64,000 nucleotides of DNA from Blastococcus sp. (lineage in GTDB: Bacteria; Actinomycetota; Actinomycetes; Mycobacteriales; Geodermatophilaceae). The notes beneath the pieces are model-generated. The model was not told the origin of the DNA. It searched no databases and worked only from the letters and a program-made list of their open reading frames with translations. The stretch covers positions 7,780 to 71,779 of the forward strand of contig JBELIQ010000013.1 in NCBI GenBank assembly GCA_042090795.1, in the 5' to 3' direction. The stretch's first letter is position 1. The number at the start of each line of letters is the position of its first letter. The position numbers and the translations under genes were made by a program. This document shows positions 11,109 through 40,893 of this stretch, in pieces.

Positions 11109-11139
11109 CCGCGTCCGCCGCCGTAGGCTCCGGCTCGTC

Positions 11140-12732: not shown

Positions 12733-12796
12733 CGGCCCCCCTCCGGAGCCCGGGCCGAGAGTGCGAGGGCTGGGGAGGAGGGGTGCCTCCGTCAGA
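12733..12796 (-). repeat. Nested palindromic repeat element at the whiB2 stop codon
   Basis: TCTGACGGAGGCA-CCCCTCC...TCGCACTCTC...GGAGGGG-GGCCG. Confidence 0.8.
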
Positions 12797-13172
12797 CGGC
12801 GCGGCGGCGGAGCCGGCGGCGCTCCCGCTCGGACAGCCCGCCCCAGATGCCGAAGCGCTCGTCGTTGGAGAGCGCGTACTCGAGGCACTCGGCCTTGACC
12901 TCGCAGCCGGTGCAGATCTTCTTCGCCTCCCGGGTGGAGCCGCCCTTCTCGGGGAAGAACGCCTCCGGGTCCGTCTCGGCACACAGGGCGCGCTCCTGCC
13001 AGGACTGCCCCTCGGCCTCCAGGCCGATGCCCAGCAGCCCGCTGATCCCGGTCCCCGTGGGAGCGCCCAGGCCCTGTCCGGCGCCCAGGCCCTGTCCGGC
13101 GCCCGCGCCGAACCGGTCGGTCGTCCGGTCGCTGCCGCTGACGTAATCGCTCAACCACGAGACCTCGGCCAT
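12792..13172 (-). CDS. whiB: WhiB2-type Fe-S transcription regulator
   Basis: WQERALCAETDPEAFFPEKGGSTREAKKIC..CEVKAECLEYAL...GIWGGLSERERR. Confidence 0.97.
   Translation of the reverse strand: MAEVSWLSDYVSGSDRTTDRFGAGAGQGLGAGQGLGAPTGTGISGLLGIGLEAEGQSWQERALCAETDPEAFFPEKGGSTREAKKICTGCEVKAECLEYALSNDERFGIWGGLSERERRRLRRRAV
13063..13104 (-). repeat. 18-bp tandem repeat in the whiB N-terminus (GAGQGL)
   Basis: GCGCCCAGGCCCTGTCCG x2 plus a 6-bp partial copy. Confidence 0.9.
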
Positions 13173-13260
13173 GACGGTGCGTCCCCTCTCGCTCTCGTCC
13201 CGGTGCGCGGCTGTCGAGACGTTCCCGAACCGCTCAGCACCTGATGACGTCCACGGAATT

Positions 13261-21438: not shown

Positions 21439-21580
21439 GCCGAGAACGTAACGGGCGGGGGAATCGGACAGGTGCGACCGCCCGCGCTCCCCCTCGGGAG
21501 AGGGGGTGGTCGTGTATCCATTGGACCGAAGCCGCGGGCCTCCCGGACCCGCTCTCGCACGACGACTCCCGAGGGCGGAG

Positions 21581-23512: not shown

Positions 23513-24754
<1,242 letters not shown>

Positions 24755-24761
24755 CCACCTG

Positions 24762-26669: not shown

Positions 26670-26685
26670 CCGCACGGTCCATCCC

Positions 26686-27609
26686 TCAGGGGCGGGTGAA
26701 CCGCTCCCGGCGCCCCTGCCGGACCAGGCCCAGCCAGGTGCGCAGGCCGGCGAGGTCGCCGCGCGCGAGGAAGAACCAGGAGAACCGCACCAGCTCCAGC
26801 GGGAACAGCCAGCGCATGCCCGGCTGGGCCATCAGGTACCCGCGGTTGCGGTACGTGAAGAAGCGCTTGGTCTCGTCCGCCGGGTACTGCGCCGACAGCC
26901 GCCCGCCCAGGATGGGCCGGAACTCCTCGGTGCCTTCCGGGTGCAGGTAGGCGGCGCGCAGGCAGGTGCCGAACCGCAGGCCGGACCGGACCAGGCGGCG
27001 GTGCACCTCGGTCTCGTCCCCGCGCAGGAAGAGCCGGTAGTCCGGCACGCCCACGGCGTCGAGCGTGTCGGCCCGGAACAGCGCGCCGTTGAACAGCGAC
27101 GCGTACCCGGGCAGCAGGTCCATGCCCGCGAAGTCCGCGCGCGTGCGGCGCCAGCGCAGCCCCCGGCGCAGGGGGAAGGCCAGCCGGTCCGGGTCGGCCT
27201 TGTCGACGACGGCCGGGCTGACCTCGGCCAGGTCGTGGGTGAGCGCGCAGTCGAGCAGGGTGGCCAGGACGGTCTCGTCGGCCGGACGACCGTCGTCGTC
27301 GGCGCACCAGACCCACTCGGCCCCCTGCGCGAGCGCGGTGAGGATGCCCAGCGCGAACCCCCCGGCCCCGCCGAGGTTCCGGTGCGAGGGCAGGTAGACG
27401 GTGGCGACGCCGGCCGCCGCGACCACCGCAGCGGTCTCCTCGTCGGCTCCGTTGTCCACGACGACGACGCAGTCGACGGGCCGGCTCTGCCCGGCCAGGG
27501 CGGCCAGGCTCTCGGCCAGCAGCGCCGGGCGCCGGTGGGTGACGACGACGGCGACGACCGGCCCGGTCGGCTCCGCGCCGGCGGCCGGGACGGGCGCCGG
27601 CGCGCTCAC
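26686..27609 (-). CDS. glfT1: Galactofuranosyltransferase GlfT1
   Basis: NLGGAGGFALG, WCADDDG, LFNGALF, RGDETEVHRR, FTYRNRGY. Confidence 0.92.
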   Translation of the reverse strand: MSAPAPVPAAGAEPTGPVVAVVVTHRRPALLAESLAALAGQSRPVDCVVVVDNGADEETAAVVAAAGVATVYLPSHRNLGGAGGFALGILTALAQGAEWVWCADDDGRPADETVLATLLDCALTHDLAEVSPAVVDKADPDRLAFPLRRGLRWRRTRADFAGMDLLPGYASLFNGALFRADTLDAVGVPDYRLFLRGDETEVHRRLVRSGLRFGTCLRAAYLHPEGTEEFRPILGGRLSAQYPADETKRFFTYRNRGYLMAQPGMRWLFPLELVRFSWFFLARGDLAGLRTWLGLVRQGRRERFTRP

Positions 27610-28379
27610 GTGCGGCTCGCCGCGTCGTCGAGCCAGGGGTCCTTGCCCTTGTAGGCGGTGAGGACCTCCCGCAGGCCGCCGCGCTGCTTGACCTGGCCGT
27701 GCTCCATCCAGATGGCCGAGGTGCACAGCCGGCGGAGGAACTCGTCGGAGTGCGAGGCGAAGACCAGCAGGCCGGCCCGCTTCACCAGCTCCTCCAGGCG
27801 GTCGCGCGCCTTCTCGAGGAAGGCGGCGTCGACGGCGCCGATGCCCTCGTCGAACAGCAGGATCTCCGGGTCGATGCTGGTCACGACGCCCAGGGCCAGC
27901 CGGACCCGCATGCCGGTGGAGTAGGTGCGCAGCGGCATCGCCAGGAAGTCGCCCAGCTCGGTGAAGTCGGCGATCTCGTCGACGCGGGACTCCATCTGCT
28001 TGCGGGTCATGCCCAGGAACAGGCCGCGGATCATGATGTTCTCGTAGCCGGAGATCTCCGGGTCCATCCCGACGCCGAGGTCGAAGACGGGCGCGACCCG
28101 GCCCTCGATGAGCGCCGACCCGCTGGTGGGCGCGTAGATGCCCGAGAGCAGCCGCAGCAGCGTCGACTTGCCCGCGCCGTTGTGGCCCACGAGGGCGACG
28201 CGGTCGCCCTCCTCGATCGTGAGGCTGATGTCGTGCAGGGCCTGGATGACGGGCACCTTGCGGTCGTCGGAGCTGATGTTGCCGCCGACCATGCCGAGGA
28301 CGGCCTTCTTCAGCGACCGGGTCTTGGCGTCGAAGATGGGGAAGTCGACGCTCGCCTGCCGGGTCTCGATGCGGACCAC
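27606..28379 (-). CDS. wzt: ABC exporter ATP-binding subunit for lipid-linked galactan
   Basis: GHNGAGKST, YSTGMRVRL, LFDEGIGAVD; VDFPIFDAKTRSLKK. Confidence 0.95.
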   Translation of the reverse strand: MVRIETRQASVDFPIFDAKTRSLKKAVLGMVGGNISSDDRKVPVIQALHDISLTIEEGDRVALVGHNGAGKSTLLRLLSGIYAPTSGSALIEGRVAPVFDLGVGMDPEISGYENIMIRGLFLGMTRKQMESRVDEIADFTELGDFLAMPLRTYSTGMRVRLALGVVTSIDPEILLFDEGIGAVDAAFLEKARDRLEELVKRAGLLVFASHSDEFLRRLCTSAIWMEHGQVKQRGGLREVLTAYKGKDPWLDDAASRT

Positions 28380-28404
28380 GTGGGAGTTCCTCTCTGCGGG
28401 CGGC

Positions 28405-29238
28405 TCAGACCCAGTAGGGGACGCGCGTGCGGTAGCGGCGCATCGCCCACAGGGTCACCGCCCAGCCGACGAGCGTGATGCCCACGACGACGGCCCAGTG
28501 GTGCCAGACCGTCTCCTGGCCGAGCATCGGCCGCCGGATGATCTCGATGTAGTGCAGGACGGGGTTGATCTCGGCGAGGCGGGCCCGCTCGGCGATGGCC
28601 GGGTTCGGACTGTTGAGGAAGTCCTCGTAGATCCACACGATCGGCGTCAGGAAGAACGTCAGCTGCACGACGCTGCCGACGATCGGGTTGAGGTCGCGGA
28701 ACCGGCTGCTCGCCATGCCGAAGAGCAGCGCGATCCAGGCGCCGTTGACGGCGAGCAGCGCGAAGGCGGGGAACGCCAGCAGGCTCGACCAGTCGAGCGG
28801 CTGCGGGAAGATCACCAGCATCACCGCGTAGACGATGAGGTTGTGCGCGAACAGCAGCGTCTGGCGCCACACCAGCCGGTAGACGTGCACCGAGATCGGG
28901 GCCGGCAGGTGCTTGATCAGCCCCTCGTTCTTGATGAAGACGTCGGCACCCTCGAGGATGCAGCCGGAGATGAAGGCCCAGACGATGAATCCGACGAGGA
29001 TGTAGGGCAGCTGCGTCTCGAGCGGGTTGCCGAACAGGCCCGCGTAGAGGATCCCCAGCGCGATGGCGGTGACCGCCATGCTGATGGTGATCCAGATCGG
29101 GCCGAGCACCGAGCGGCGGTACCGCTGACGGATGTCCTGCCAACCCAGGTGCGCCCACAGCTCGCGGGACCGCCAGCCGGCGACGAGGTCCTTCCTGGCA
29201 CCTCCCCAGGCAGCGTTCGACGACGCGGTGACAGCCAC
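28405..29238 (-). CDS. wzm: ABC exporter permease
   Basis: DIRQRYRRSVLGPIWIT, RFRD, FFLTPIVW, NP; GTG start 29238. Confidence 0.95.
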   Translation of the reverse strand: MAVTASSNAAWGGARKDLVAGWRSRELWAHLGWQDIRQRYRRSVLGPIWITISMAVTAIALGILYAGLFGNPLETQLPYILVGFIVWAFISGCILEGADVFIKNEGLIKHLPAPISVHVYRLVWRQTLLFAHNLIVYAVMLVIFPQPLDWSSLLAFPAFALLAVNGAWIALLFGMASSRFRDLNPIVGSVVQLTFFLTPIVWIYEDFLNSPNPAIAERARLAEINPVLHYIEIIRRPMLGQETVWHHWAVVVGITLVGWAVTLWAMRRYRTRVPYWV

Positions 29239-29383
29239 GTTGGTCGAGGCTACCGGCCGCGGCGCGAGCCCCGGCGCACTCGGTGGTACCAGGGGCGGTC
29301 GGGGCTGACGGGTCCGCAGAGGCGCACCGTCCGCCCGGCGGCGGTCACCCGGGACGCACATCCCCCGCGGCTACCCTCGCCGC

Positions 29384-32300
29384 ATGTCCTCGGCCCGGCC
29401 GGCGCAGGGGCGGGCAGCACACCCACGTCTGCCCCTGATCCTGCTCGCGGCGCTCTCCCTGCTGTCCTCCGTCGCGTTCGTCCTCGCGCCGGTGGAGCGC
29501 CCGGAGGCCGTCTACGGCTGGCCGTCGGCCCCGGGCGACGCGACGTCGGTCGCCATCCCGCTGATGCTGGAGCGGCCCGACCTGGTGCGCGCCGAGTGGG
29601 ACTGCGCCGCGGCACGGGCGGCCGACGACGGCACCGTCCTGCTCGCCACCACCGCCCTGGACCCGCCTCCCGGCGACGCCGGGCTCGCCGGGGGGCTGCG
29701 GGTCGCGGTCGAGGGAGGGGACGTGGTCGTCCGCTCCGGGGGCGCCGACCTCGCCGAGCGGTCGATCCCCGGCTCCGGTGACTGCGCCTGGGAGCTCTCC
29801 TCCACCGCCGGGTCCACGACGCTGCGCCTGGACGGCGAGGTCGTGGCCGAGGAATCCGGCGACGTGCGTCCGGCGGTCGCGGGCGTGTTCAGCGACGTCA
29901 CCGACCCGGCCGGGCTGTCGGTCGCGGTCACCGCCGACACGGTCTTCCAGACCTCCCCCACCCCGCTGAAGCAGGCACTGGCGGTGCTGGCCGTGCTCGC
30001 GCTGGCCGCGGCCGCCGTCCTCGTCGTCCGGACGGGGCGGCGCACCGACCCGGCCGGGACGGGCTCGCCGGCTGCTCCCGCCGCCCGCGCGGGCGGCGGC
30101 GTCCTGCGGCTGGGGGTCGACGCGGTCGTCGTCCTGGGCCTGGCGGTGTGGACCGTCATCGGGCCGATGACCGTCGACGACGGCTACATCTCCGGCATCA
30201 TCCGCAGCCGGGACGAGAACGGCTTCGTCGGCAACGTCTACCGCTGGTTCAACGCCCCCGAGGCGCCGTTCGGCTGGCACTACGAGTTGCTGGACCTGTG
30301 GTCGGAGGTCGGCCAGAGCACCCTCTGGTTGCGGGTGCCCTCGTCCCTGCTGGGGATCGCGACCTGGCTGCTGATCTCCCGGGGGCTCCTGCCGCGGCTG
30401 GGGCGCTTCGCGGCGGCCCGGTCGACCTATGCCGTCGCCGCGGCGACCTTCGCGCTGTGGTGGCTGCCCACCAACCTGGGCCTGCGCCCCGAGGCGTGGG
30501 TCGCCGCCGGACTCGCCGCCGTCATGGTCCTGGTCGAGCGCGGGCTGCGGCTCGGCCGGCCCGCACCGCTGCTGCTCGGGCTGGTGGTCGCCGGGGCGAC
30601 GCTCGCGGTGACCCCCACCGGGGCGGTCGCCTTCCTGCCCTTCCTGGCCGCGGCGGTGCCGATCCTCCGGCTCGCCCGCAGCTTGCCCCTCGGGTTGCCG
30701 GCCCTGACCGTCGTGGCCGTGGCGTCGGCCGGGACGGCCCTGCTGCTGGTGTTCGCCGACCAGAGCCTGGCCTCCCTCGGCGAGGCCAACCGCGTCCGCA
30801 GCGCCCTGCCCGGTTCGCTGCCCTGGTCCGACGAGCCCCAGCGCTGGTACCTGCTGCTGTCCAACGAGGACCTGCAGGGCTCCCTGGGCCGGCGGGTGCC
30901 GGTGCTGCTGGCCGTGGTCGCGGCTCTCGGGGTCGTGTGGCACCGGGTCTCGGCGCGCTGGCCCGGCACCGCGGACCGCGACGTCGCCGGACGCCTGGCC
31001 GCCACGTTCGGCCTGTCCCTGCTGGTCCTCCTGGCGACGCCGACGAAGTGGACGATGCACTTCAGCGCGCTGGTCCCGGTCGGGACCGCGCTCGTCGTGG
31101 TGGCGGTGCACCTCTTCGGCCCGGGGCTGCGCGCCGGATCGGCCGGTGGGCGGATCCCCACGGCGGCCCTCGCCCGGACCGCGGTGCCCCTCGCGATCGT
31201 GCTCCTCGTCGGCGCCCAGTCCTGGGCCGGGCTGAACCGGTGGGCCTACCTGTCCGACCTGGGCGTGCCGTGGAACGACACCCCGCCCGAGGTGCTCGGG
31301 CTGAGCATCTCCTCGATGTTCCTGATCCTCGCCCTGCTGGTGAGCGGAGCAGCCGCCGCGACGGTGATCTGGGCCCGGGCCCGCGACGTCGAGGACGTGC
31401 GCGTGCCGCTGGCCCGGTACCTGCCTTCCCCCGGCCTGGTGGCGGTGGCGCTGATCGTGCTCACGGTCGCGCTCCAGCTGGGCAGCTTCGTCCAGGCCAC
31501 CCGCGCGCAGCAGGGCAGCTACTCCCTGGCGTCCGACGCGGCCGCGACCCTCGGTGGTGAACCGTGCGGGCTGGCCGAGGAGCTGCGGGTGGAGCCCGAC
31601 CCGGCCGAGGGGCTGCTCGCCCCGGCGGAGGGCCTCCCCGGGACCGACGGCGAACCGGTGCTCGACGGGTTCGCCGCGGTGCCCGACGGCCGGGTGCCGA
31701 CCGGCCCGGACCTGACGACGGCCGGCGTCGACCTACCCGGCTGGGCAGCCACCGGCCGCACCGCCGAGGACAGCCGCGAACCCGCCCGCCTGGTCACCGG
31801 GTGGTTCGAGGTCCCGGACGCGTTCCTCGCGGAGGACCGCCCGCTCGTCGTGACGACCAGCGGCGACCGGCCGGCGGGCACGAGCGTGGTGGCCGAGTTC
31901 GGCAGCATCGGCGACGGCGGCGTGCAGGTCGTGGACAGCGTCCCGGTGCCCGACATCGATGGCGCCCCCTCCGCCCGCGACGGCCGGGTGGCCCCGGGCG
32001 CGGTGCCGGCGGAGGCCGGGCTGGTCCGGCTGGTCGCCGAGGACGGCGGAGTCGAGGGCGACGTGCCGCTGGCGGTGTCGGTCCCGAGGGTGCCGGTCAC
32101 GGTGCCGTTCCAGGACGTCGTCGATCCCGGCACGCCGGCGCTGGTCGACTGGCCGGTCGCCTTCGTCTTCCCCTGCCAGTCGCCGGCCGTGCAGCAGAAC
32201 GGCCTCACCGACGTCCCGGAGTGGCGGATCTCCCCCGACCCCGCCGACGCCGGGGACATCGTCGTCCAGGAGGAGCTCGGCGGCCCCTACGCACCTGCCC

Positions 32301-32452
32301 GTTCCCTGGTGGACCAGGAGCAGGTGCCGGTGTACCTCCCCGACCGCCCGCTCGAGCGCCCCGTCTCCCTCTACGCCTGGGAACCCCGGACCGAGCTGGC
32401 CGAGCCGGTGCGCCGGATCACCACGGAGACGGTCGCCGGCTGGGCGGGCTGA
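29384..32452 (+). CDS. emb: Emb-family arabinosyltransferase (GT53)
   Basis: TVDDGY, YRWFNAPEAPFGW, NLGLRPE, PTKWTMHF, DWPVAFVFPCQ. Confidence 0.9.
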   Translation: MSSARPAQGRAAHPRLPLILLAALSLLSSVAFVLAPVERPEAVYGWPSAPGDATSVAIPLMLERPDLVRAEWDCAAARAADDGTVLLATTALDPPPGDAGLAGGLRVAVEGGDVVVRSGGADLAERSIPGSGDCAWELSSTAGSTTLRLDGEVVAEESGDVRPAVAGVFSDVTDPAGLSVAVTADTVFQTSPTPLKQALAVLAVLALAAAAVLVVRTGRRTDPAGTGSPAAPAARAGGGVLRLGVDAVVVLGLAVWTVIGPMTVDDGYISGIIRSRDENGFVGNVYRWFNAPEAPFGWHYELLDLWSEVGQSTLWLRVPSSLLGIATWLLISRGLLPRLGRFAAARSTYAVAAATFALWWLPTNLGLRPEAWVAAGLAAVMVLVERGLRLGRPAPLLLGLVVAGATLAVTPTGAVAFLPFLAAAVPILRLARSLPLGLPALTVVAVASAGTALLLVFADQSLASLGEANRVRSALPGSLPWSDEPQRWYLLLSNEDLQGSLGRRVPVLLAVVAALGVVWHRVSARWPGTADRDVAGRLAATFGLSLLVLLATPTKWTMHFSALVPVGTALVVVAVHLFGPGLRAGSAGGRIPTAALARTAVPLAIVLLVGAQSWAGLNRWAYLSDLGVPWNDTPPEVLGLSISSMFLILALLVSGAAAATVIWARARDVEDVRVPLARYLPSPGLVAVALIVLTVALQLGSFVQATRAQQGSYSLASDAAATLGGEPCGLAEELRVEPDPAEGLLAPAEGLPGTDGEPVLDGFAAVPDGRVPTGPDLTTAGVDLPGWAATGRTAEDSREPARLVTGWFEVPDAFLAEDRPLVVTTSGDRPAGTSVVAEFGSIGDGGVQVVDSVPVPDIDGAPSARDGRVAPGAVPAEAGLVRLVAEDGGVEGDVPLAVSVPRVPVTVPFQDVVDPGTPALVDWPVAFVFPCQSPAVQQNGLTDVPEWRISPDPADAGDIVVQEELGGPYAPARSLVDQEQVPVYLPDRPLERPVSLYAWEPRTELAEPVRRITTETVAGWAG

Positions 32453-32627
32453 TCCTCCGACCGTTCCTCCCCGGTGTGACCAGTGCGACCACGGAGGGCT
32501 CCCGTGACGAGGCGGGCGTGGGCGTCCCCGCCGGGCCGGCTCAACCTGTGTCGGACGACCGATCGGTGCGCCCGTCCGATCTAGCATCGCGTGTACCGCC
32601 GAGCAGCCGCCAGCAGTGAGGACCTCC

Positions 32628-34184
32628 GTGAGCCGAGACCGGAACGAGCCCGACGACCGTCACGGTCGTCCGCTCCCGCCGAGCCTCGACCCGCGAGCCG
32701 GCCGCCCGCCGCGCAGGACGACGGACCGGGGCGCCTCCGCCGCCGGGGGCTCCGGCCGGACCGGTGCCGGTGCCCGCCGTGCCGCCATGGGCGCACGCGC
32801 GGTGGCCACCGTGCTGTCGCTGGTGCTGCTGGTCGCCAGCGGCTGGGGGTGGTACCTCGGCCAGGTGGCGGACGCTTCGGTCAACCGCACCGACGCCATC
32901 CCGTCCGACGGCAACGAGGGCGGCGGCGGCTCGGCGATGAACCTCCTGCTGGTCGGCAACGACAGCCGCACGACGCTGTCCGACGAGCTCAAGTCCCAGC
33001 TGCACACCGGTGGCGACCAGGGTTTCAACACCGACACGATGATCCTCGTCCACGTGCCGGCCGACGGGTCCCGGGCCGCGTTCGTCTCCTTCCCGCGCGA
33101 CTCCTACGTGGAGATCCCGGGCTACGGGAAGGACAAGCTCAACGCGGCCTACGCCTACGGCCGGCAGAACGCCCCGGACGACGCCCCGGAGGAGGAGAAG
33201 TCGGGGCAGGGCGCGCAACTGCTGGTGCAGACCATCAGCGGCCTCACCGGCCTGAAGATCGACCACTACGCCGAGATCGACCTGCTCGGCTTCTTCAACC
33301 TCACCGAGGTCGTGGGCGGGGTCGAGGTCAACCTGTGCGCGCCCGTCGACGACCGCAGGTACTCCGGGGCCGTCTTCCCGGCCGGGCCCCAGGTCATCTC
33401 CGGCGCCGACGCCGTCAAGTTCGTGCGCCAGCGCCACGGGCTGCCCCGGGTCGACCTCGACCGCATCGTCCGCCAGCAGGTCTTCATCGGCGGTGTGCTC
33501 CGCAAGATGCTGTCCGAGGACGTGATGCTGGACCTGGGCCGGCAGCGCGAGCTCGCCGAGGCCGCCTCCAAGGCGCTCACCGTCGACCGGAACCTCGAGC
33601 TGCTCGATCTCGCCCAGCAGATGCAGACGGTCACCGCCGGCAGCATCAAGTTCCAGACCATCCCGATCGTGACCCCCGACGGGCGTGACGAGCAGGGCCG
33701 CTCGATCGTCCAGCTCGAGGACGAGGAGACCCTGCACGCCTTCTTCGCCGACCTCTCGGCGGAGCCGGCGAAGCCCGCGACGACCCCCGCCCCGACCAGC
33801 GAGGCGCCCCCCACGGCGGCGCCGTCGGAGGTCACCGTGGAGGTCTTCAACGGCTCGGGCACCTCCGGCCTCGCGGGCACCGCGGCCGATGCGCTCACCG
33901 AGGCCGGGTACGTCGTCGGCAGCACCGGCAACGCGGACTCGATGGACTACACCCGGACCGAGATCCGCTACGCCACCGCCAGCAAGGCGCAGGCGACGAC
34001 GCTGGCCACCGCGGTCCCGGGCGCGAAGCTCACCGCCGACGAGGACGTGCCGGCCGGCACGACCCACCTGGTGATCGGCTCGGACTTCAACGGCATCGGG
34101 CAGGCGGTGACCCAGCAGCCCGCCCCCGAGAAGACCGAGGGCGCCCCTGCCCGCACCGCCGCCGACTCCTCCTGCATCAACTGA
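32628..34184 (+). CDS. LCP (LytR-CpsA-Psr) glycopolymer-peptidoglycan ligase with LytR_C domain
   Basis: LLVGNDSR, TDTMILVH, SFPRDSYV, KLNAAY, FVRQRH...D.DRIVRQQ; C-terminal VEVFNGSG. Confidence 0.93.
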   Translation: MSRDRNEPDDRHGRPLPPSLDPRAGRPPRRTTDRGASAAGGSGRTGAGARRAAMGARAVATVLSLVLLVASGWGWYLGQVADASVNRTDAIPSDGNEGGGGSAMNLLLVGNDSRTTLSDELKSQLHTGGDQGFNTDTMILVHVPADGSRAAFVSFPRDSYVEIPGYGKDKLNAAYAYGRQNAPDDAPEEEKSGQGAQLLVQTISGLTGLKIDHYAEIDLLGFFNLTEVVGGVEVNLCAPVDDRRYSGAVFPAGPQVISGADAVKFVRQRHGLPRVDLDRIVRQQVFIGGVLRKMLSEDVMLDLGRQRELAEAASKALTVDRNLELLDLAQQMQTVTAGSIKFQTIPIVTPDGRDEQGRSIVQLEDEETLHAFFADLSAEPAKPATTPAPTSEAPPTAAPSEVTVEVFNGSGTSGLAGTAADALTEAGYVVGSTGNADSMDYTRTEIRYATASKAQATTLATAVPGAKLTADEDVPAGTTHLVIGSDFNGIGQAVTQQPAPEKTEGAPARTAADSSCIN

Positions 34185-34231
34185 CGGCGACGCGTCGCCG
34201 CCCGGTTCCCGGCTGTTAACCTCGGCGGACC

Positions 34232-35899
34232 TTGTCCGGCGTCGATGGTCCCGGTGCTCGTGCGCGGCGCCCAGCCCACAGAGGAGACGCGCCCCTGCTG
34301 TCCCACCTGGTCCTGGACGACGACGGCCTCTCCTTCGACGCCTCGCCCGAGGACGACGACCGCGTGCTCGACCTGCTGCTCGCCGGACGGCGGATCTGGT
34401 CGTTCCGCGTCTCGGCGACCGAGCCCGGTACGTCGGGTGAGCCGCACCGCCGCCGGCTGCCGTGGCCGCGGCCGCTGCGGCCGTACCTGACCGGCACCGG
34501 CACGATCGGCCTGCGCCCCATCGACGGCGGCTCGGACGTGCTGACCGCCGCCGCGCGGTTCGGCGACGGCGACCGGCCGCTCCGGTTCGACGACCGCCAC
34601 GGCATCGGGCTGGTCATCAACAAGTTCGGGCGCATCGGCCATGCGCTGGCCGACTACGACCCCGGCATGGTGCCGCGGCTGCTGGACAACCTCGACCGCG
34701 TCCGGGCGGCGCTCGCCGAGCACCGGCCCGACCTGCCCGTCTACGTCATGAGCGGCACCCTGCTCGGCCCCTACCGGGACGGCCGGATCATGCCGCACGA
34801 CGACGACGCCGACCTCGGCTACCTGAGCGCGCACAGCCACCCCGCCGACGTGGTCCGCGAGGCCTTCCAGCTGGGCCGGATCCTGCGCGCCGCCGGGCTG
34901 GACGCCATCCGCGCCTCGGCCGGCCACGTGCAGGTCCACTTCAGCCACGAGGGCCGGCCCGATGCCTACGTCGACCTCTTCACGGGGTTCATCGACGAGC
35001 AGGGCTGGTGGCAGCACACCTTCGCGATCCGGCTGCAGGCGCGCCGCGACCAGGTCGTCCCCACGATCACCGTCGACGTGGAGGGCCGCCCCGAGCCCGC
35101 GCCCCGGGAGCCGGAGCTCATGCTCGAGGCCAACTACGGCCCGGGGTGGAAGGTGCCCGACCCCTCCTACCGGTTCGACATCCCCCGCTCCGTCCAGGAC
35201 CGGTTCTGGGGCTGGTTCTCCGACTACGGCATGGACCGCACCATGTGGGAGGACTTCTACCGCTACGACATCGAGGGCGCCCGCGTGCCGCTGGGCAGCA
35301 CGCCGTCGGGCTACGCCCGCTGGCTGGCCGGCCGGATCCCCCCGGGCAGCCGGGTGCTGGAGCTCGGCACCGGACGGGGTCACGACGCGCTGTGGCTGGC
35401 CGCGCAGGGGTTCGACGTCGAGGCGCTGGACTACGTGCGCTGGCCCGTGCGCGCGGCCACCGAGGCCGCCGAGGAGCAGGGCTCGACGGCCCGTTTCCGG
35501 GTGCTCAACCTCTACGACCTGCGCCGGGTGATCACCCTCGGCGCCGAGCTGGCCGCCCGCCGGGAGCCGCTGGTCGTCTACGGCCGGGGGCTGCTCGGCA
35601 ACTACTGGGACATCGGGCGGCCCATCCTGCTGCGCGGGCTGTCGATGCTGCTGCGCAGCGGCGGGCAGGCGCACCTGGACGTGCCCCGCACCAGCCTGCT
35701 CCCCCAGCCGGGCACCGGCGTCCCGATGCACCGGGCGGTGCCGGTGGACACGCTGCGCGCGGAGCTGGCCCCCTACGGGCTGCGGATCGACGAGGTGCAC
35801 GACGCCGACGAGGTGGACGGGCACACGCCCTGGGAGACGGGCACCGACCCGCTCCCGACGACGAGGATGGTGGTGACATGGCAGCGACCGGTGCGGTGA
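34232..35899 (+). CDS. LicD-like nucleotidyltransferase-fold domain fused to a class I SAM methyltransferase
   Basis: SGTLLGPYRDGRIMPHDDDADLGY (LicD-type GTLLG...DDD.D); VLELGTGRGHDA...EALDY (motif I). Confidence 0.78.
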   Translation: MSGVDGPGARARRPAHRGDAPLLSHLVLDDDGLSFDASPEDDDRVLDLLLAGRRIWSFRVSATEPGTSGEPHRRRLPWPRPLRPYLTGTGTIGLRPIDGGSDVLTAAARFGDGDRPLRFDDRHGIGLVINKFGRIGHALADYDPGMVPRLLDNLDRVRAALAEHRPDLPVYVMSGTLLGPYRDGRIMPHDDDADLGYLSAHSHPADVVREAFQLGRILRAAGLDAIRASAGHVQVHFSHEGRPDAYVDLFTGFIDEQGWWQHTFAIRLQARRDQVVPTITVDVEGRPEPAPREPELMLEANYGPGWKVPDPSYRFDIPRSVQDRFWGWFSDYGMDRTMWEDFYRYDIEGARVPLGSTPSGYARWLAGRIPPGSRVLELGTGRGHDALWLAAQGFDVEALDYVRWPVRAATEAAEEQGSTARFRVLNLYDLRRVITLGAELAARREPLVVYGRGLLGNYWDIGRPILLRGLSMLLRSGGQAHLDVPRTSLLPQPGTGVPMHRAVPVDTLRAELAPYGLRIDEVHDADEVDGHTPWETGTDPLPTTRMVVTWQRPVR

Positions 35900-36243
35900 A
35901 GCGGCTGGTGCGGGCCCCGGCGAAGGCGTTCCGGAAGGCCCTCTTCCCGGACTACGAGGCAGTGCTCCGCGACATCCGGCTGGCCTTCGACTCCCTCAAG
36001 GCCGCGCACCGCGGCATCGCCGACCTGCAGGTGGAGAACGCCGCGCTGCGGTCCCGCCTGGACGAGGCGTACGGACGCCTGGACGAGGCGCTGCCGCGAC
36101 TGGCCGAGGGCCTGCTCGAGGAGCGCCGGCTCAACCTGCGCATCGCCGAGCTGACCGACCTGGTGACCGAGGTCGTGCTGCCGCTGCACGACCGGGACAT
36201 CGACCCCGGGCAGCTGCAGAGGCTGGCTCCGGACACCCTCTGA
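35896..36243 (+). CDS. Small coiled-coil protein (DUF6752-like), coupled to the upstream gene
   Basis: GTGA overlap; heptad pattern ending EERRLNLRIAELTDLVTEVVLP. Confidence 0.75.
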   Translation: MKRLVRAPAKAFRKALFPDYEAVLRDIRLAFDSLKAAHRGIADLQVENAALRSRLDEAYGRLDEALPRLAEGLLEERRLNLRIAELTDLVTEVVLPLHDRDIDPGQLQRLAPDTL

Positions 36244-36262
36244 GACGTCCGCACCCGCGGCC

Positions 36263-36287
36263 ACCCCCGTCCGCCGGGGACGGGGGT
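36263..36287. terminator. Hairpin between convergent genes
   Basis: ACCCCCGTCC-GCCGG-GGACGGGGGT, perfect 10-bp stem. Confidence 0.75.
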
Positions 36288-36291
36288 CGGC

Positions 36292-37047
36292 TCAGAAGGG
36301 CAGCCGGCGGAACACCGCGCGCGGCGTGTGGCGCAGGCCGCTCATCACCCAGCGCATCGCGCCGGGGACCCACACGGTGTGCCGGCCCTTGCGGACGCCG
36401 GTGACGATCGCCTCGGCCACGGCCTCCGGCGTCGTGGACAGCGGCGCCTCGGCCATGCCCTCGGTCATCTTCGACCGCACGAAACCGGGCCGGACGACCA
36501 GCACCGACACCCCGGTGCCCACGAGGGAGTCGGCCAGGCCCGAGTAGAACGCGTCCACACCGGCCTTGGTGGAGCCGTAGACGTAGTTGGACCGCCGGGC
36601 CCGCTCCCCGGCCACGGACGACAGCACGACGATCGCCCCGTGGCCCTGGCTGCGCATCCGGTTGGCCAGGGCCGTGCCGACGACCACCGGGGCCACGTAG
36701 TTCACCTGCCCGAGCGCACCGGCCGCACCGGGGTCGGCGGCGAGCTGCTCCTGGTCGCCGAGCTGACCGAAGGCGACCACCGCGACGTCGATGTCCGCAC
36801 CGGCCGCGGCGGCGGCGACCATGCGCTCGGGCGAACCCGGGTCGTCGGCGTCGAAGTCGACGACGTCGACGTCGGCACCGGCGGCTCGGAGCTCGTCGGC
36901 CACGGCGGCCCGGCGCGGGGAGTTCCGCGCCGCGACGACGACGCGCAGCGGCCGCTCGGCCAGGTAGCGGCGGGCGGTGGCCACGGCGATGTCGGAGGTT
37001 CCGCCGACGAGCAGCAGCGAGCTCGGGGATCCGAGGGCGTCGATCAC
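36292..37047 (-). CDS. dprE2: Decaprenylphospho-2-keto-erythropentose reductase
   Basis: IDALGSPSSLLLVGGTSDI, AFGQLGD, RRSNYVYGSTKAG; directly downstream of dprE1. Confidence 0.93.
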   Translation of the reverse strand: MIDALGSPSSLLLVGGTSDIAVATARRYLAERPLRVVVAARNSPRRAAVADELRAAGADVDVVDFDADDPGSPERMVAAAAAGADIDVAVVAFGQLGDQEQLAADPGAAGALGQVNYVAPVVVGTALANRMRSQGHGAIVVLSSVAGERARRSNYVYGSTKAGVDAFYSGLADSLVGTGVSVLVVRPGFVRSKMTEGMAEAPLSTTPEAVAEAIVTGVRKGRHTVWVPGAMRWVMSGLRHTPRAVFRRLPF

Positions 37048-38456
37048 AGCGAGAGCCTCCTGGCCAGGTCGGACGTGAACACACCGTCGGGGTCCACCCG
37101 CTCGCGGACCGCGCGGAACTCCTCGAGCCGCGGGTACATCCGCGCGAAGGTCTCCGGGCGGACCCGGGAGTCCTTGGCCAGGTAGGTCCGTCCCTCGGCG
37201 GCGACGACGACCTCGTCCAGGGAGTCGAGCAGACCGGCCAGCCCCTTCATCACGGGGATGTCCAGCGCCAGCGTCCACCCCGGCGACGGGTAGGACAGCA
37301 TGCCGGGGTTGCCGGGGCCGAAGCGCTTGAGCACGGCGAGGAAGGACGCCGTCCCGAACGAGCTGAGCCGGTCCAGCACCTCGCGCATGGCCTCCTCCTG
37401 CCCGAAGGGCACGGTGACCTGGTACTGCACGAAGCCGCGCGGGCCGTAGATGCGGTTCCAGCCGCCCACGGCGTCGAGCGGGTGGAAGAAGGTCGGGATG
37501 CTCTGCAGCTGGTCGCGCTTCTTCTTGGGCGACTTGCGGTACCAGAGCTCGTTGAACGCCGCGACCGTGGCCAGGTTCAGCAGCCCGGGCGGGAAGACGT
37601 CGGGGACCGACACCTTGATCGAGCCGTGGTAGGCCAGCGGGTCGGCCTTCCGCTTCTCCGGCAGCTCGTCGAGCGTGGCGAAGCGGCCGCGGGTGACCAC
37701 CGAGCGGCCCATGCGCCGCCCCTTGGCCAGCGTGTCGATCCAGGCGACCGAGTACTCGTAGAGGTGGTCGGTCTCGGCCAGCAGCGTCATGAGCGAGTCG
37801 AGGTCGGGCGTGCGGTCGGTGTCGACCAGGCAGCGCGAGGACTCGATCCGCTTCAGCTGCACCTGCGCGCGCAGGATCACCCCGGTCAGGCCCATGCCGC
37901 CGGCGGTGGCCCAGAAGAGGTCCGGGTCCTGCTCGGGGCTGACCCGCCGCACCTCGCCGTCGGCGGTGAGCAGGTCCAGCCACCGGACGTGCTGGGCGAA
38001 GCTGCCCGCGACGTGGTGGTTCTTGCCGTGGATGTCCGCCCCGATGGCCCCCCCGACGGTCACCAGGCGGGTGCCCGGCGTCACGGGCACGAAGAAGCCC
38101 TGCGGGACGAAGCGGTTCATCAGCTCGTCCAGCGAGATGCCGGCCTCGACGTCGACCAGACCGGTCTCCGGGTCGAAGGACAGCACGCGGGCGGCCGCGG
38201 TCATGTCCAGCACGTGGCCACCGGCGTTCTGCGCCGCGTCGCCGTAGCTGCGGGCCAGACCGCGGGCCACCACACCACGACCGCCGGCGGCGGCGAGCAC
38301 CGCACGCACCTCGGCGTCGTCGTGGACGGGGGTGAGCACCGCCGGCGTCGGCGCGGTGCGGCCCCAGCCGTGGAGAGCCACGGCTTCGCCGGCCCCGTCC
38401 AGGGGCCCGCGCCGAGCCTGCGAGGCGTGGGGGGGACGGGGTGTTTCGTCAGACAT
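37044..38456 (-). CDS. dprE1: Decaprenylphosphoryl-ribose 2'-oxidase (FAD)
   Basis: GWGRTAP, RGLARSYGDAAQN, PVTPGTR.VTVGGAIGADIHGKNHH, SFLAVLKRFG, YLAKDSR. Confidence 0.95.
   Translation of the reverse strand: MSDETPRPPHASQARRGPLDGAGEAVALHGWGRTAPTPAVLTPVHDDAEVRAVLAAAGGRGVVARGLARSYGDAAQNAGGHVLDMTAAARVLSFDPETGLVDVEAGISLDELMNRFVPQGFFVPVTPGTRLVTVGGAIGADIHGKNHHVAGSFAQHVRWLDLLTADGEVRRVSPEQDPDLFWATAGGMGLTGVILRAQVQLKRIESSRCLVDTDRTPDLDSLMTLLAETDHLYEYSVAWIDTLAKGRRMGRSVVTRGRFATLDELPEKRKADPLAYHGSIKVSVPDVFPPGLLNLATVAAFNELWYRKSPKKKRDQLQSIPTFFHPLDAVGGWNRIYGPRGFVQYQVTVPFGQEEAMREVLDRLSSFGTASFLAVLKRFGPGNPGMLSYPSPGWTLALDIPVMKGLAGLLDSLDEVVVAAEGRTYLAKDSRVRPETFARMYPRLEEFRAVRERVDPDGVFTSDLARRLSL
38390..38453 (-). 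repeat. Nested palindromic repeat element at the ubiA stop / dprE1 N-terminus
   Basis: GTCTGACGAAACA-CCCCGTCC...CGCC-TCGCAGGCTC-GGCG...GGACGGGG-CCG. Confidence 0.88.
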
Positions 38457-39435
38457 CGAAGACTCCCAACGCCATGGTGCCCACCCAGAGCACACCGAGG
38501 CAGAGCAGCACGCGGTCGTGCAGGACGATCTCCTCGGGTGCGCCGGCGGAGCCCTTGTCCACGTCCACCGCGTACCTGAGGATCGCCATGACGAACGGGG
38601 CGATGGAGATGGTCGACCACGGGATGCCCTCCTGCGTCTCCCCCATCTCGAAGGCCCACAGGCTGTAGGCGGTGACCGCCACGCCGGCCGAGAGGCTCCA
38701 CACGAACCGCAGGTAGCTCGCCGAGTACTCCTTCAGCGTCTTGCGCGTCGCGGCGGCGTCGCCGACCAGGACCAGCTCGGAGTAGCGCTTGCCGGCGACC
38801 ATGAACAGCGAGCCGAAGGCGGCGACGAGCAGGAACCACTGCGACAGCACCAGCCCGGCCGCCACGCCCCCGGCGATGCCGCGGAGCAGGAAGCCCGAGG
38901 CGACGACGGCGAGGTCGATGACCGGCTGGTTCTTGAGGAACACGCAGTAGGCCAGCTGGATGACCACGTAGCTGGTCAGCACCCACGCCAGCTCGGGACG
39001 GGTGAGCAGCACGGCGGCCACCAGCGCGACGGTGAACAGCACGGCGGCCATGACCAGGGCGAGCCAGCGCGGCACGATGCCGGCGGCGATCGGCCGGAAC
39101 CGCTTGCGCGGGTGCCGACGGTCCTCCTCGACGTCGATCGTGTCGTTGACCAGGTAGACGGCGGACGCGGCGAGGCAGAAGAGCACGAACGCGGCGGCGG
39201 TCGGCCCCATGACGTCGGGGTTGAAGATCTCCCCCGCGGCCAGCGGGGCGGCCAGGACCAGCACGTTCTTGACCCACTGGCGGGGTCGCAGCGCCCGCAC
39301 CAGGCCCCAGGCGAAGCTCCCCCGGAAGCCGGGGAGGCGGGGGGCCGGCTCCGGAGCGGACGAGGTCTCGTCGGGAACCGGCGCCGTCGTGGCCTCCGGC
39401 GCCAGTGCGGGGCTCGACTGGGGATGCACGGTCAC
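38449..39435 (-). CDS. ubiA: Decaprenyl-phosphate phosphoribosyltransferase (DPPR synthase)
   Basis: RPRQWVKNVLV, YLVND..D...DR.HPRKR.RPIAAG, GKRY.E, GAPEE. Confidence 0.94.
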   Translation of the reverse strand: MTVHPQSSPALAPEATTAPVPDETSSAPEPAPRLPGFRGSFAWGLVRALRPRQWVKNVLVLAAPLAAGEIFNPDVMGPTAAAFVLFCLAASAVYLVNDTIDVEEDRRHPRKRFRPIAAGIVPRWLALVMAAVLFTVALVAAVLLTRPELAWVLTSYVVIQLAYCVFLKNQPVIDLAVVASGFLLRGIAGGVAAGLVLSQWFLLVAAFGSLFMVAGKRYSELVLVGDAAATRKTLKEYSASYLRFVWSLSAGVAVTAYSLWAFEMGETQEGIPWSTISIAPFVMAILRYAVDVDKGSAGAPEEIVLHDRVLLCLGVLWVGTMALGVFDV

Positions 39436-39965
39436 GCCTTCCTGCCTGGGTGTCTGGTCATGCGGCGCCGCACGGCCGTGGCCACGCCCGCGCCGAGCAC
39501 GGCGCCGGACACCACGTCCGAGGGGTAGTGGACGCCCAGGAGCACCCGGGAGACCAGCATGACGCCGGTCAGCGCCACCATGGGGGGACGCCCGACCATG
39601 GGTCCGAAACCGACGGCGGCCGCCGCCGTCGAGCAGCTGTGCGCGCTGGGGAAGGACAGCCGGCTCGGCGTCCCCACCAGCGCCGGGACGTCCTCCAGCG
39701 CGGGCCGCACCCGGCGGACCACGCGCTTGACCGCCACACCCGCGGCGTGCGCGGCGACGACGCCGGTGATGCCGGCCGCCCACTCCTCGCGCCGGCGGCC
39801 GGCGGCCCACCCGGCCGCGCCGAGGGCCAGCCAGCCGAGCGCGTGCTCGCCGAAGTGCGACAGACCACGGGCGACGGGGACGGCCGGGGTGCTCCCGAGC
39901 GCGCGGCGCGTGGAGCGGAGCACCGCGTGGTCGATCCGGATCAGGGCAGCGCTCGGTGCGGTCAT
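39432..39965 (-). CDS. PAP2 phosphatase (Rv3807c-like DPPR phosphatase)
   Basis: K..VRRVRP, SFPSAH, SRVLLGVHYPSDV; overlaps the ubiA start. Confidence 0.9.
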   Translation of the reverse strand: MTAPSAALIRIDHAVLRSTRRALGSTPAVPVARGLSHFGEHALGWLALGAAGWAAGRRREEWAAGITGVVAAHAAGVAVKRVVRRVRPALEDVPALVGTPSRLSFPSAHSCSTAAAAVGFGPMVGRPPMVALTGVMLVSRVLLGVHYPSDVVSGAVLGAGVATAVRRRMTRHPGRKA

Positions 39966-40056: not shown

Positions 40057-40893
40057 GTGTCCACCACCCGACCCGCGCCGTCCGGCGCCGGGCTGCCGGA
40101 GCTGCCGGGCGAGCTGCTCGCCGCGGTCGTCCGCAGGAACGCCGCCGCCCCCCTGCTCACCGCCTACGACGACGCGACCGGCGACCGCGTGGAGCTGTCC
40201 GCGGCCACGCTGGCCAACTGGGTGGCCAAGACCGCGAACCTGCTGCAGGACGAGTTCGACGTCGGGCCGGGCAGCACGGTGGCCCTGGCGCTGCCCGTCC
40301 ACTGGCAGACCGCAGCGGTGCTGCTGGCCACGTGGAGCTGCGGTGCCGCGGTGCTGGACACCGCCGCCGAGGACGACGACCGGCTCGCCGACGCCGCCGT
40401 CGTCCTCGCCGACCGGGACCGGCTGCCGGCCCTGGAGGACGTGCTCGGGGCCGACGGGGCGGAACTGCTCGGGCTCTCGCTGCACCCGCTCGGGATGGGC
40501 ATGACCGACTACGTGGGACCGGCCCGGGACTTCGCCCTGGAGGTGCGGGCGCACGGCGACTTCTTCGCGCCGTGGCAGCCGCCGGACCCGGCCGCACCGG
40601 GTCTGGTGACCGGCGGGCTGACGCTGGCCCTCGGCGGCCTGGTCGCCGCGGCCGGCGAGCTCGCCACCCGGCTCGGCATCCGGTCCGACGACCGGGTGCT
40701 GGTCGATGCCGACACCGCGGCGGAGGCCGGGCCCGTGGCGTGGCTGCTCGCGCCGCTCGTCGCGGGCGCGTCCACGGTGCTGGTCCGCCATCCCGCCGTC
40801 GACGGCCTCGCACACCGAGCGGCCACCGAGCGCGTGACCGCCACCCTGGGCCCGAGGATCGAGGGGGTCCGCGCGCTCGGCGCACCGGCCTGA
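40057..40893 (+). CDS. TIGR03089 family protein (Rv3268-like)
   Basis: PLLTAYDDATGDRVELSAATLANWVAKTANLL, LPVHWQ. Confidence 0.9.
   Translation: MSTTRPAPSGAGLPELPGELLAAVVRRNAAAPLLTAYDDATGDRVELSAATLANWVAKTANLLQDEFDVGPGSTVALALPVHWQTAAVLLATWSCGAAVLDTAAEDDDRLADAAVVLADRDRLPALEDVLGADGAELLGLSLHPLGMGMTDYVGPARDFALEVRAHGDFFAPWQPPDPAAPGLVTGGLTLALGGLVAAAGELATRLGIRSDDRVLVDADTAAEAGPVAWLLAPLVAGASTVLVRHPAVDGLAHRAATERVTATLGPRIEGVRALGAPA

Follow-up and report, generated by a model that had tools for sequence, protein, structure and literature searches.

What role does a pair of overlapping genes, one encoding a fused enzyme and the other a small coiled-coil protein, play in the wall-glycan locus of a Blastococcus species? 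We analyzed a 64,000-nucleotide stretch of the genome (the window) in which this pair, hereafter the module, lies between the gene for an LCP glycopolymer ligase and the dprE2-dprE1-ubiA genes, 5 kb from wzm/wzt. LicD-family proteins, to which the fused enzyme appears to belong, have demonstrated or proposed roles in the decoration of wall polysaccharides, for which they draw on CDP donors (PMC9574508, PMC4873967). The literature that we searched contained nothing specific on LicD-methyltransferase fusions, Micrococcales galactofuranan chemistry, or Geodermatophilaceae arabinogalactan, and no wall chemistry for the organisms that carry the module.

Predicted architecture of the fusion protein

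GC3 frame analysis resolves the module into two real coding frames, at positions 34220-35899 and 35896-36243, both on the forward strand. The first holds the fusion gene (34232-35899, +; GC3 0.96), which encodes 555 residues from a TTG codon at 34232 and matches both LicD and Methyltransf_23 in Pfam. The true start is uncertain by ≈10 to 25 codons, as pLDDT is low over residues 1-19 and the homologues start further in. The AlphaFold2 model of the whole protein is compact (pLDDT 84.9, pTM 0.81) and divides into three domains.

The N-terminal domain (≈residues 20-135; 34289-34640, +), overlooked in an initial annotation of this DNA, is conserved and β-rich, with eight predicted strands (pLDDT 85-95), a size of ≈110 to 140 residues, and the motifs WP...L..G and VNKWG. 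No Pfam family matches it, even at E ≤ 10. Among 28 homologues, Asn130 and Lys131 are invariant, and Gly133 is present in at least 90% of the sequences.

The second domain (≈residues 145-345; 34664-35266, +) is predicted to adopt the LicD nucleotidyltransferase fold and carries GTLLG, DDDxD, and DxF motifs. Pfam LicD (PF04991) scores 24.6 bits against the whole protein and 28.2 bits against the excised domain, above the gathering cutoff of 22.6. This alignment covers only 30 residues, the GTLLG...DDD stretch, suggesting that the domain represents a distant branch of the family. The motifs G175-T-L-L-G179, R182, D190-D-D-A-D194, and D248-L-F250 are invariant in the 28 homologues as well as in a set of 36, and they align to GGSLLGAARHG...DYDVDL and HVDLW of FKRP. 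A profile of the 36 homologues matches the FKRP catalytic domain (281-436) with an E value of 8.5e-9. When a model of the N-terminal and LicD parts was submitted to Foldseek, FKRP accounted for each of the 13 best matches (E 2.4e-7 to 1.4e-6), with other nucleotidyltransferase folds appearing only at E ≥ 4e-4; the full-length model returned methyltransferases only. Among solved proteins, FKRP alone is significantly related to this domain, by sequence profile and by fold. The Pfam score, the motifs, and the FKRP-like predicted fold together point to membership in the LicD family.

The third domain (≈residues 352-555; 35285-35896, +) resembles TehB and TPMT and matches the Pfam families Methyltransf_23, TehB, and TPMT. 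Methyltransf_23 scores 31.6 bits in the whole protein and 33.9 bits in the excised domain (cutoff 27). Motif I reads VLELGTGRGHD (GxGxG), and Gly379, Gly381, and Asp400 are invariant in the 28 homologues. PDB entries including 8gdu, 6mro, and TehB match in sequence and fold, and Foldseek assigns a probability of 1.0 to many class I methyltransferases. The domain is most similar to small-molecule enzymes (TehB, TPMT, and halide/thiol methyltransferases) rather than to known sugar O-methyltransferases. Fold and motifs thus identify the C-terminal part as a predicted class I S-adenosylmethionine (SAM)-dependent methyltransferase. With both profile scores above their cutoffs and the motifs intact, the initial description of a LicD domain fused to such a methyltransferase holds.

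Neither the fusion protein nor its coiled-coil partner has a predicted signal peptide or membrane helix. Their highest 19-residue hydropathy values are 0.81 and 1.06, as compared with 2.0 to 2.2 for the LCP and Wzm controls, so both are predicted to act in the cytoplasm.

An obligate gene pair in many actinobacteria

The second gene of the module (35878-36243, +; GC3 0.94-0.98) begins within the 3' end of the fusion gene and encodes a coiled-coil protein of the DUF6752 family (PF20537, 44.8 bits; gathering cutoff 27), a family of which we found no mention in the literature searched. There are two candidate starts, a GTG at 35896 that gives a GTGA overlap and 115 residues, and an ATG at 35878 that gives a 22-nt overlap and 121 residues. 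The ATG has GAGGA 10 nt upstream, and this Shine-Dalgarno/ATG arrangement is kept in related loci L001-L008. The protein has an unbroken heptad register over ≈85 residues, a basic N-terminal motif, and a conserved C-terminal helix. Across the family, conserved N- and C-terminal motifs flank a coiled coil whose length varies by lineage from ≈64 to 163 residues.

We compared neighbors within 8 kb in 66 related loci, which span three actinobacterial orders, using phmmer on all open frames because GC3 gene calling missed small genes. A DUF6752 homologue lies directly downstream of the fusion gene in all 66, with no further DUF6752 match elsewhere in those loci. The translational coupling proposed initially was borne out, as the stop and start overlap both here and in 60 of the 66 loci. 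Of 401 evenly sampled Actinomycetota genomes, three contain DUF6752, each time beside a LicD gene. The fusion family comprises 424 clusters at 50% identity (E ≤ 1e-30); of its 148 best representatives, 134 have the methyltransferase domain. The fusion and DUF6752 genes are an obligate pair, conserved across many actinobacteria.

The initial annotation had also set co-occurrence with glycan loci as its test, and the related loci bear this out. At least one wall-glycan marker (TarI/TarJ, Wzm, GlfT2, LCP, Emb, DprE1, RmlA, GT2, or GT4) lies within 8 kb of the module in 55 of the 66 loci; Wzm is found in 17, Emb in 13, and GlfT2 and LCP in nine each, alongside Glf, Rml, GT2, and GT4 genes. An Arthrobacter-type operon, which consists of TarI/TarJ-like, LicD-methyltransferase, DUF6752, GH1-like, GT4, and phosphoesterase genes, has no exporter or LCP gene within 8 kb. 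In three other lineages, the module sits inside Wzm/Wzt, GlfT2, Glf, Rml, or LCP clusters. It is common in Micrococcales, and the Micrococcales and Aeromicrobium loci have no Emb or DprE1 gene nearby.

The module is an optional addition to the arabinogalactan gene cluster

In the window, Pfam and NCBIfam calls agree with the position first assigned to the module, between the LCP ligase and the DPA operon and near wzm/wzt. Upstream is a block of aftA, glf, glfT2, and embC-like genes (21452-32452, +; Pfam), with wzt and wzm inside it on the reverse strand; a second Emb is present as well. The embC-like gene (29384-32452, +; Pfam) is preceded by wzm (28405-29361, -; Pfam ABC2_membrane), for an ABC-2 exporter, and by wzt (27606-28379, -), whose 257-residue product has Pfam ABC_tran at 48-178 and no other Pfam match, including to a C-terminal carbohydrate-binding domain. 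The LCP ligase gene (32616-34184, +; LytR-CpsA-Psr and LytR_C, 134.8 and 71 bits in Pfam) ends 48 nt upstream of the fusion gene on the same strand and probably shares its operon; an LCP gene likewise precedes the module in related loci L001-L004 and L006-L008.

On the other side, the convergent dprE2-dprE1-ubiA genes (36292-39528, -) consist of dprE2 (36292-37059, -; NCBIfam DprE2, 365.7 bits, cutoff 250), dprE1 (37044-38495, -; FAD_binding_4 and ALO), and ubiA (38449-39528, -; NCBIfam DPPR synthase, 429 bits), which encodes decaprenyl-phosphate phosphoribosyltransferase. Between the convergent DUF6752 and dprE2 genes is a 9-bp G+C-rich hairpin (36264-36286), the single such locus in the window, where 0.05 would be expected by chance; it is a probable bidirectional terminator lacking a T-tail. 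A scan for T-tail terminators did not call this hairpin, and a consensus promoter and terminator scan over 32400-36400 returned nothing.

By a first-look filter, 25 of 121 Geodermatophilaceae genomes carry the module. With the same filter, and with kinship ignored, GlfT2 is present in 23 of these 25 carriers versus 51 of 96 noncarriers (Fisher p = 4e-4), whereas an Emb match is absent from 11 of the 25. GlfT2 in the carriers is usually on the same contig as the module, at a distance of 8 to 70 kb. Genomes of the same genus that lack the module have LCP right beside dprE2, at a distance of ≈88 bp, and carry a different GT4/GDP-sugar/ABC cluster upstream. Within the arabinogalactan gene cluster, the module is not a core step but an accessory, present in some lineages and absent from others.

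Cytidylyltransferase genes beside the module

To consider which donor the LicD domain may use, we looked at cytidylyltransferase genes, which occur in 33 of the 66 related loci, mostly in the same operon as the module. Twenty-nine are of the IspD type, including fused IspD-SDR (TarI/TarJ-like) forms, and six are of the TagD type; the Geodermatophilus aquaeductus locus has separate TarI and TarJ genes, and in three Geodermatophilaceae loci a TagD-type gene directly follows DUF6752. Five Cellulosimicrobium loci have another NTP-transferase. The cytidylyltransferase neighbors suggest, indirectly, that the LicD domain may use a CDP-activated phospho-alcohol donor.

In the window itself, no cytidylyltransferase gene adjoins the module, and tblastn of this 99.7%-complete genome found neither fused nor split TarI/TarJ. 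The one IspD-like gene, on contig C27, is presumably the MEP-pathway copy. A single TagD-like gene is present, on a different contig (C26:172020-172517) and beside a Wzy/Wzz cluster. A MobA-like NTP-transferase on contig C16, 60% identical to the Cellulosimicrobium copy that neighbors the module there, was considered as a donor synthase and rejected, as it adjoins copCD and an M23 peptidase gene here.

Discussion

The interpretation that we favor, and consider reasonably probable, is that the pair modifies a polyprenol-linked wall glycan in the cytoplasm, before ABC export, by attaching a polyol phosphate and a methyl group. This scheme builds on the domain identities, intact motifs, gene pairing, genomic association, accessory distribution, and lack of membrane segments described above; for the donor, acceptor, methylation target, and complex of the two proteins, we infer the following. 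The module would work at the cytoplasmic face of the membrane while the glycan is still on polyprenyl phosphate, and its tailoring would precede Wzm/Wzt export and then LCP ligation to peptidoglycan. The LicD domain would draw a phospho-alcohol from a CDP-activated donor and place it on a sugar hydroxyl; the likeliest donors, which would differ by lineage, are glycerol phosphate and ribitol phosphate. The fused methyltransferase would methylate the added group or a neighboring sugar in a 1:1 ratio. The N-terminal β domain probably holds the glycan acceptor; in this Blastococcus, the likely acceptor is the galactan that GlfT2 makes for an arabinogalactan-like polymer. The DUF6752 protein, which would be made in fixed proportion through the stop/start overlap, probably oligomerizes or positions the enzyme. 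Weighing against this interpretation are the lack of TarI/TarJ in this genome, the location of its TagD-like gene away from the module, the Arthrobacter-type operon with no exporter within 8 kb, and the resemblance of the methyltransferase to small-molecule enzymes.

Several known systems share parts of this scheme. The mammalian ribitol-5-phosphate transferases FKRP and fukutin, which are LicD-family proteins that act with ISPD, have the catalytic fold and motifs of the fusion in common, and the ISPD-FKTN/FKRP pathway (PMC4873967) has its parallel in the IspD-type or TagD-type cytidylyltransferases found at half of the related loci. Unlike FKRP, the fusion is bacterial and predicted to be cytoplasmic, has a different N-terminal domain, lacks the FKRP stem domain and any evident zinc finger, and has in addition a SAM methyltransferase domain and a coiled-coil protein as its obligate partner. 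The bacterial phosphocholine transferases LicD1 and LicD2, and the candidate YcbG with TagD1 in the Lactococcus cwps locus, likewise place LicD proteins in strain-variable wall-polysaccharide loci together with a CDP-alcohol synthase (PMC9574508; bioRxiv 10.1101/2025.05.13.653012), but these are single-domain proteins with neither a methyltransferase nor DUF6752. The donor-making enzymes that adjoin the module in 33 of 66 loci are those of the TarI/TarJ and TagD teichoic acid pathways; here, in contrast, the transferase is of the LicD and not the TagB/TagF type, there is no polymerase signature, and a methyltransferase is fused.

The initial annotation likened the module to E. coli O9a WbdD, in which a kinase, a methyltransferase, and a coiled-coil ruler cap an ABC-exported glycan. 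By that logic, the LicD-methyltransferase protein would cap the nonreducing end of an ABC-exported glycan with a methylated phospho-group and stop polymerization, while DUF6752, which would use its basic N-terminal motif as a membrane-proximal anchor, would set the distance and hence the chain length. We regard this as possible but unlikely. A phospho-transfer domain, a SAM methyltransferase, and a coiled coil occur together in a locus dependent on an ABC transporter, with wzm/wzt 5 kb upstream in the same cluster and Wzm in 17 related loci, and the proposed cytoplasmic action on a polyprenol-linked, Wzm/Wzt-exported glycan would be the same. A methyltransferase fused 1:1 suits a blocking cap, terminal motifs that stay conserved while the coiled coil between them varies in length suit a ruler, and coupled translation suggests a complex of fixed ratio. 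The differences are substantial, however. The fusion has no kinase match in Pfam or NCBIfam and a predicted LicD fold instead, and its match to the WbdD methyltransferase is generic, at 21.7 bits and approximately rank 55, covering the SAM motif only (profile positions 341-404). The long C-terminal coiled coil of WbdD belongs to the same polypeptide, whereas here it is a separate, much shorter protein of 115 to 121 residues, and many lineages have only a short coiled coil. The Wzt partner of WbdD has a C-terminal carbohydrate-binding domain, as does, in the form of a cap-reading domain, the Wzt of all capping systems known to us; Wzt here and in related loci (248-279 residues) lacks it. Unlike WbdD, moreover, the module is accessory in its family. 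GlfT2 persists in 51 of 96 Geodermatophilaceae genomes that lack the module, indicating that the polymerase does not need it as a terminator. A polyol phosphodiester, if that is what is added, would also leave no free phosphate for O9a-style methylation. What stands of the WbdD comparison is a functional analogy only. A modified version seems to us slightly less likely still. In it, the pair would be a new kind of device that caps the ABC-exported wall glycans of Gram-positive actinobacteria with a methylated polyol phosphate and sets their length through a trans-acting DUF6752 ruler of lineage-specific length, with no cap-reading Wzt domain.

It is also conceivable, though rather improbable, that the product is not part of the wall, being instead a phospho-alcohol glycolipid or a soluble methylated polyol-phosphate, as for Mf1, a LicD-family enzyme of phosphocholine glycolipid. 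The self-contained Arthrobacter-type operon would fit such a product, as would the likeness of the methyltransferase to small-molecule enzymes and a weak NCBIfam match to Mf1 (20.6 bits), but this score is far under the cutoff of 225, the GT4 of that same operon is similar to TuaH, a teichuronic-acid protein (79.5 bits, itself well under a cutoff of 550), and in three other lineages the module is embedded in Wzm/Wzt, GlfT2, Glf, Rml, or LCP clusters.

Arabinan is built outside the membrane by Emb/Aft enzymes, and mycolates attach at its termini. That the module stands in for mycolylation of these termini in a mycolate-free relative of mycobacteria, as was initially suggested, is very improbable, being contradicted by both topology and distribution: its position inside an arabinogalactan-type cluster, in a host presumed to lack mycolic acids, is the only point in its favor, but both proteins are predicted to be cytoplasmic, Micrococcales and Aeromicrobium carry the module at loci with no Emb or DprE1 nearby, no Emb match is found in 11 of 25 Geodermatophilaceae carriers, and only about one-fifth of the genomes of that family carry the module. 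Overall, the initial interpretation is partly supported.

LicD-type decoration of wall polysaccharides is already known; what is new is the combination of the N-terminal domain, LicD, and a methyltransferase, always with a coupled DUF6752 gene, in a large family that spans several actinobacterial orders. Our analysis gives DUF6752 its first functional context, and the favored interpretation predicts that actinobacterial wall glycans bear a methylated polyol-phosphate group not described before. Among Geodermatophilaceae, the module marks a variable wall-glycan locus beside the conserved DPA genes, and variable loci of this kind usually matter for phage adsorption and surface properties. Were the capping and ruler function to prove true, the module would be the first device of its kind outside S-layer glycans and Gram-negative O-antigens, and the control of galactan length would be open to experiment.

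Results

The LicD-methyltransferase fusion and its DUF6752 partner

At the window's G+C content of 74%, open reading frames by themselves carry little meaning; the real coding frames, as judged by third-position G+C, are 34220–35899 and 35896–36243, both on the forward strand. The first holds a LicD-methyltransferase fusion gene that starts at TTG 34232 and encodes 555 aa, an enzyme that public annotations label either "LicD family protein" or "class I SAM-dependent methyltransferase" and nothing more specific. In the second gene, Pfam recognizes DUF6752 (44.8 bits against a cut-off of 27), a domain unmentioned in the literature searched. One possible start of this gene, GTG 35896, overlaps the stop codon (TGA) of the fusion gene; another, an in-frame ATG at 35878 with GAGGA 5′ of it, is kept among close relatives and is perhaps the true one. 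The pair, hereafter the module, is single-copy in the source genome, and its closest relatives, at ≈90% identity, are found in Blastococcus species.

Pfam detects LicD in the fusion protein at 24.6 bits, or 28.2 bits with the excised domain (cut-off 22.6), in an alignment limited to the GTLLG...DDD motif, and its Methyltransf_23 model, for class I methyltransferases, scores 31.6 bits (cut-off 27). The AlphaFold2 model is confident and compact (pLDDT 84.9, pTM 0.81) and comprises three domains, the first of which, at residues ≈20 to 135, is β-rich and remains without a Pfam match at a threshold as loose as E ≤ 10. The initial annotation had named the LicD and methyltransferase domains correctly and overlooked this N-terminal one. 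The LicD middle domain has a single significant solved relative, the human ribitol-5-phosphate transferase FKRP: a profile of 36 sequences reaches it at E 8.5e-9 and aligns the catalytic motifs, and the best 13 Foldseek matches to the LicD-containing model are all FKRP. The C-terminal domain is most like TehB/TPMT-like small-molecule methyltransferases. An alignment of 28 homologues reveals invariant residues in both the LicD domain (G175-T-L-L-G179, R182, D190-D-D-A-D194, and D248-x-F250) and the methyltransferase (G379, G381, and D400).

The DUF6752 protein maintains one heptad register across ≈85 residues. Its homologues span 64 to 163 aa, with a basic N-terminal motif (hydrophobic-R-R-x-A/S-P), a central coiled coil of lineage-dependent length, and a conserved C-terminal helix (E-S-R-R-L-N-L-R-x-A-E-L-x-D). 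Neither module protein contains a membrane-spanning hydrophobic stretch, a feature present in the LCP and Wzm controls.

Conservation of the pair

Scanning one genome per species yielded 66 related loci, from the Geodermatophilaceae (Blastococcus, Geodermatophilus, Modestobacter, and Klenkia), the Micrococcales (Arthrobacter, Cellulosimicrobium, Microbacterium, Leucobacter, Agromyces, Cryobacterium, and Herbiconiux), and Aeromicrobium. Iterative HMM searching that began with the DUF6752 protein of the window places a homologue directly 3′ of the fusion gene in every one of the 66, with no further homologue elsewhere in these 17-kb loci, and the DUF6752 start codon overlaps the fusion-gene stop codon in 60. 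Three of 401 evenly sampled Actinomycetota genomes encode DUF6752, always adjoining the LicD gene. HMMER, run in full against 1.84 billion representatives, returned 424 clusters at E ≤ 1e-30; the methyltransferase domain is present in 134 of the best 148, the remainder being mostly short fragments.

Two individual loci stand out. One Geodermatophilaceae genome (G445:C1:911644-918096) carries two LicD gene copies ≈5 kb apart on opposite strands. A contig labelled Vibrio cholerae strain 35D (WNZI01000007.1, locus L045) has 69% G+C, a gene order of the Arthrobacter type, and 92% nucleotide identity across 7.7 kb to an Arthrobacter MAG, and is almost certainly a contaminant or mislabelled in its assembly.

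Wall-glycan neighbors and candidate CDP-donor enzymes

The initial annotation had placed the module between an LCP ligase and the DPA genes, near wzm/wzt, and the genes found match that description. The LCP ligase and an Emb-type arabinosyltransferase lie 5′ on the same strand, with wzm/wzt farther 5′ on the opposite strand; dprE2 (365.7 bits), dprE1, and the decaprenyl-phosphate phosphoribosyltransferase gene ubiA (429 bits) converge from the 3′ side, and aftA, glf, glfT2, and a second emb round out an arabinogalactan-type cluster. Where DUF6752 and dprE2 converge, positions 36264–36286 form a perfect 9-bp G+C hairpin (CCCCCGTCC gccgg GGACGGGGG) without a T-tail, at this one locus only in the window. 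A gene of ≈280 aa at 40057–40893 (+), which matches the AMP-binding model over just its first 70 positions and has the same length beside the DPA genes in 12 related loci, could encode a vestige of a FadD-type ligase or a shorter relative.

Of the 66 related loci, 55 have one or more wall-glycan markers inside 8 kb and 33 encode an IspD-type or TagD-type cytidylyltransferase, a pattern that would follow from a LicD domain modifying a wall glycan with CDP-polyol donors. In Microbacterium and Leucobacter loci, TarI/TarJ-like genes and wzm/wzt accompany the module, and glf adjoins it in one Leucobacter locus. In Cellulosimicrobium, wzt-wzm-glfT2 diverge from the module, followed by GT2, NTP-transferase, and rml genes, while the Aeromicrobium order is wzm/wzt, module, GT2, and a TagD-like cytidylyltransferase. 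Among the Geodermatophilaceae, G. aquaeductus encodes TarI and TarJ separately, directly 3′ of DUF6752, a position taken by a TagD-like gene in three loci of a second positional group. The Arthrobacter-type order is a fused IspD-SDR (TarI/TarJ-like; its score against the ribitol-5-phosphate cytidylyltransferase subfamily is 153 bits, slightly below the cut-off of 166), LicD-methyltransferase, DUF6752, GH1-like, TuaH-like GT4, and phosphoesterase.

Within 18 Arthrobacter-type loci (L020, L036, and 16 more, at ≈9950–13200), the GH1-like TIM-barrel protein, conserved and far under family cut-offs, and the TuaH-like GT4 are encoded 3′ of the module, and a calcineurin-like phosphoesterase is present in about half. 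Together with the module, these genes form a compact operon.

A search of the source genome found no TarI/TarJ and one IspD-like gene only, presumably the MEP-pathway copy. Its only other candidate CDP-alcohol synthase is a TagD-like gene with HxGH and ...T-S-S-T... signatures at contig C26:172020-172517 (locus L068, 8021–8518), directly upstream of mfd at the edge of a Wzy/Wzz/BY-kinase polysaccharide cluster; its product could supply CDP-glycerol.

A variable locus beside the DPA genes

The LicD profile matches 25 of 121 Geodermatophilaceae genomes. Arabinogalactan-type genes also appear patchy, with Emb matching 38 and GlfT2 74 of the 121, all tallies resting on a pre-filter of uncertain sensitivity. 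Both are commoner in module carriers, GlfT2 at 23/25 versus 51/96 in non-carriers (Fisher p = 4e-4) and Emb at 14/25 versus 24/96 (p = 0.007), with relatedness ignored.

In same-genus genomes that lack the module, the LCP gene ends ≈88 bp from the dprE2 stop, an empty site exactly at the module's position. When the window (32616–36292 and the adjoining DPA genes) is compared with loci L069 (G514:C8:462000-478000) and L070 (G439:C2:367500-383500), protein identity is 88 to 96% for dprE2, dprE1, and ubiA and 58 to 60% for LCP, the drop falling at that site. Upstream of LCP, the module-free congeners have another ABC-transporter glycan cluster, one that includes genes for GDP-mannose dehydratase and GT4; one of these genomes also has an FkbM methyltransferase there. 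Wall-glycan genes 3′ of dprE2 thus vary within the genus, and the module belongs to a variable block flanking the conserved DPA genes.

Discussion

The best-supported reading of these sequence data is that the module performs a cytoplasmic tailoring step on a polyprenol-linked wall glycan. The proposal that it replaces mycolylation conflicts with its topology, which lacks a membrane stretch, and with its distribution (the 66-locus spread; 25/121 Geodermatophilaceae). The parallel drawn with WbdD, the kinase, methyltransferase, and coiled-coil ruler of E. coli O9a, would make the module a chain terminator and ruler; a methyltransferase fused at a 1:1 ratio and a coiled coil that varies in length between conserved end motifs both fit. 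We nevertheless consider this unlikely, as the module has no kinase, a cap-binding domain is absent from the window's Wzt, GlfT2 occurs in many module-free genomes, and the resemblance of the methyltransferase to WbdD is generic, at just 21.7 bits across the SAM motif.

In the tailoring step that we favor, the LicD domain would add a polyol phosphate from a CDP donor onto the polyprenol-linked glycan, most likely galactan in this Blastococcus, and the fused methyltransferase would then methylate the product, with DUF6752 as a partner in fixed ratio. Export by Wzm/Wzt and LCP ligation would follow, and the added substituent may be either a terminal cap or a side-chain decoration. We class the module as a form of LicD-type wall-glycan decoration.
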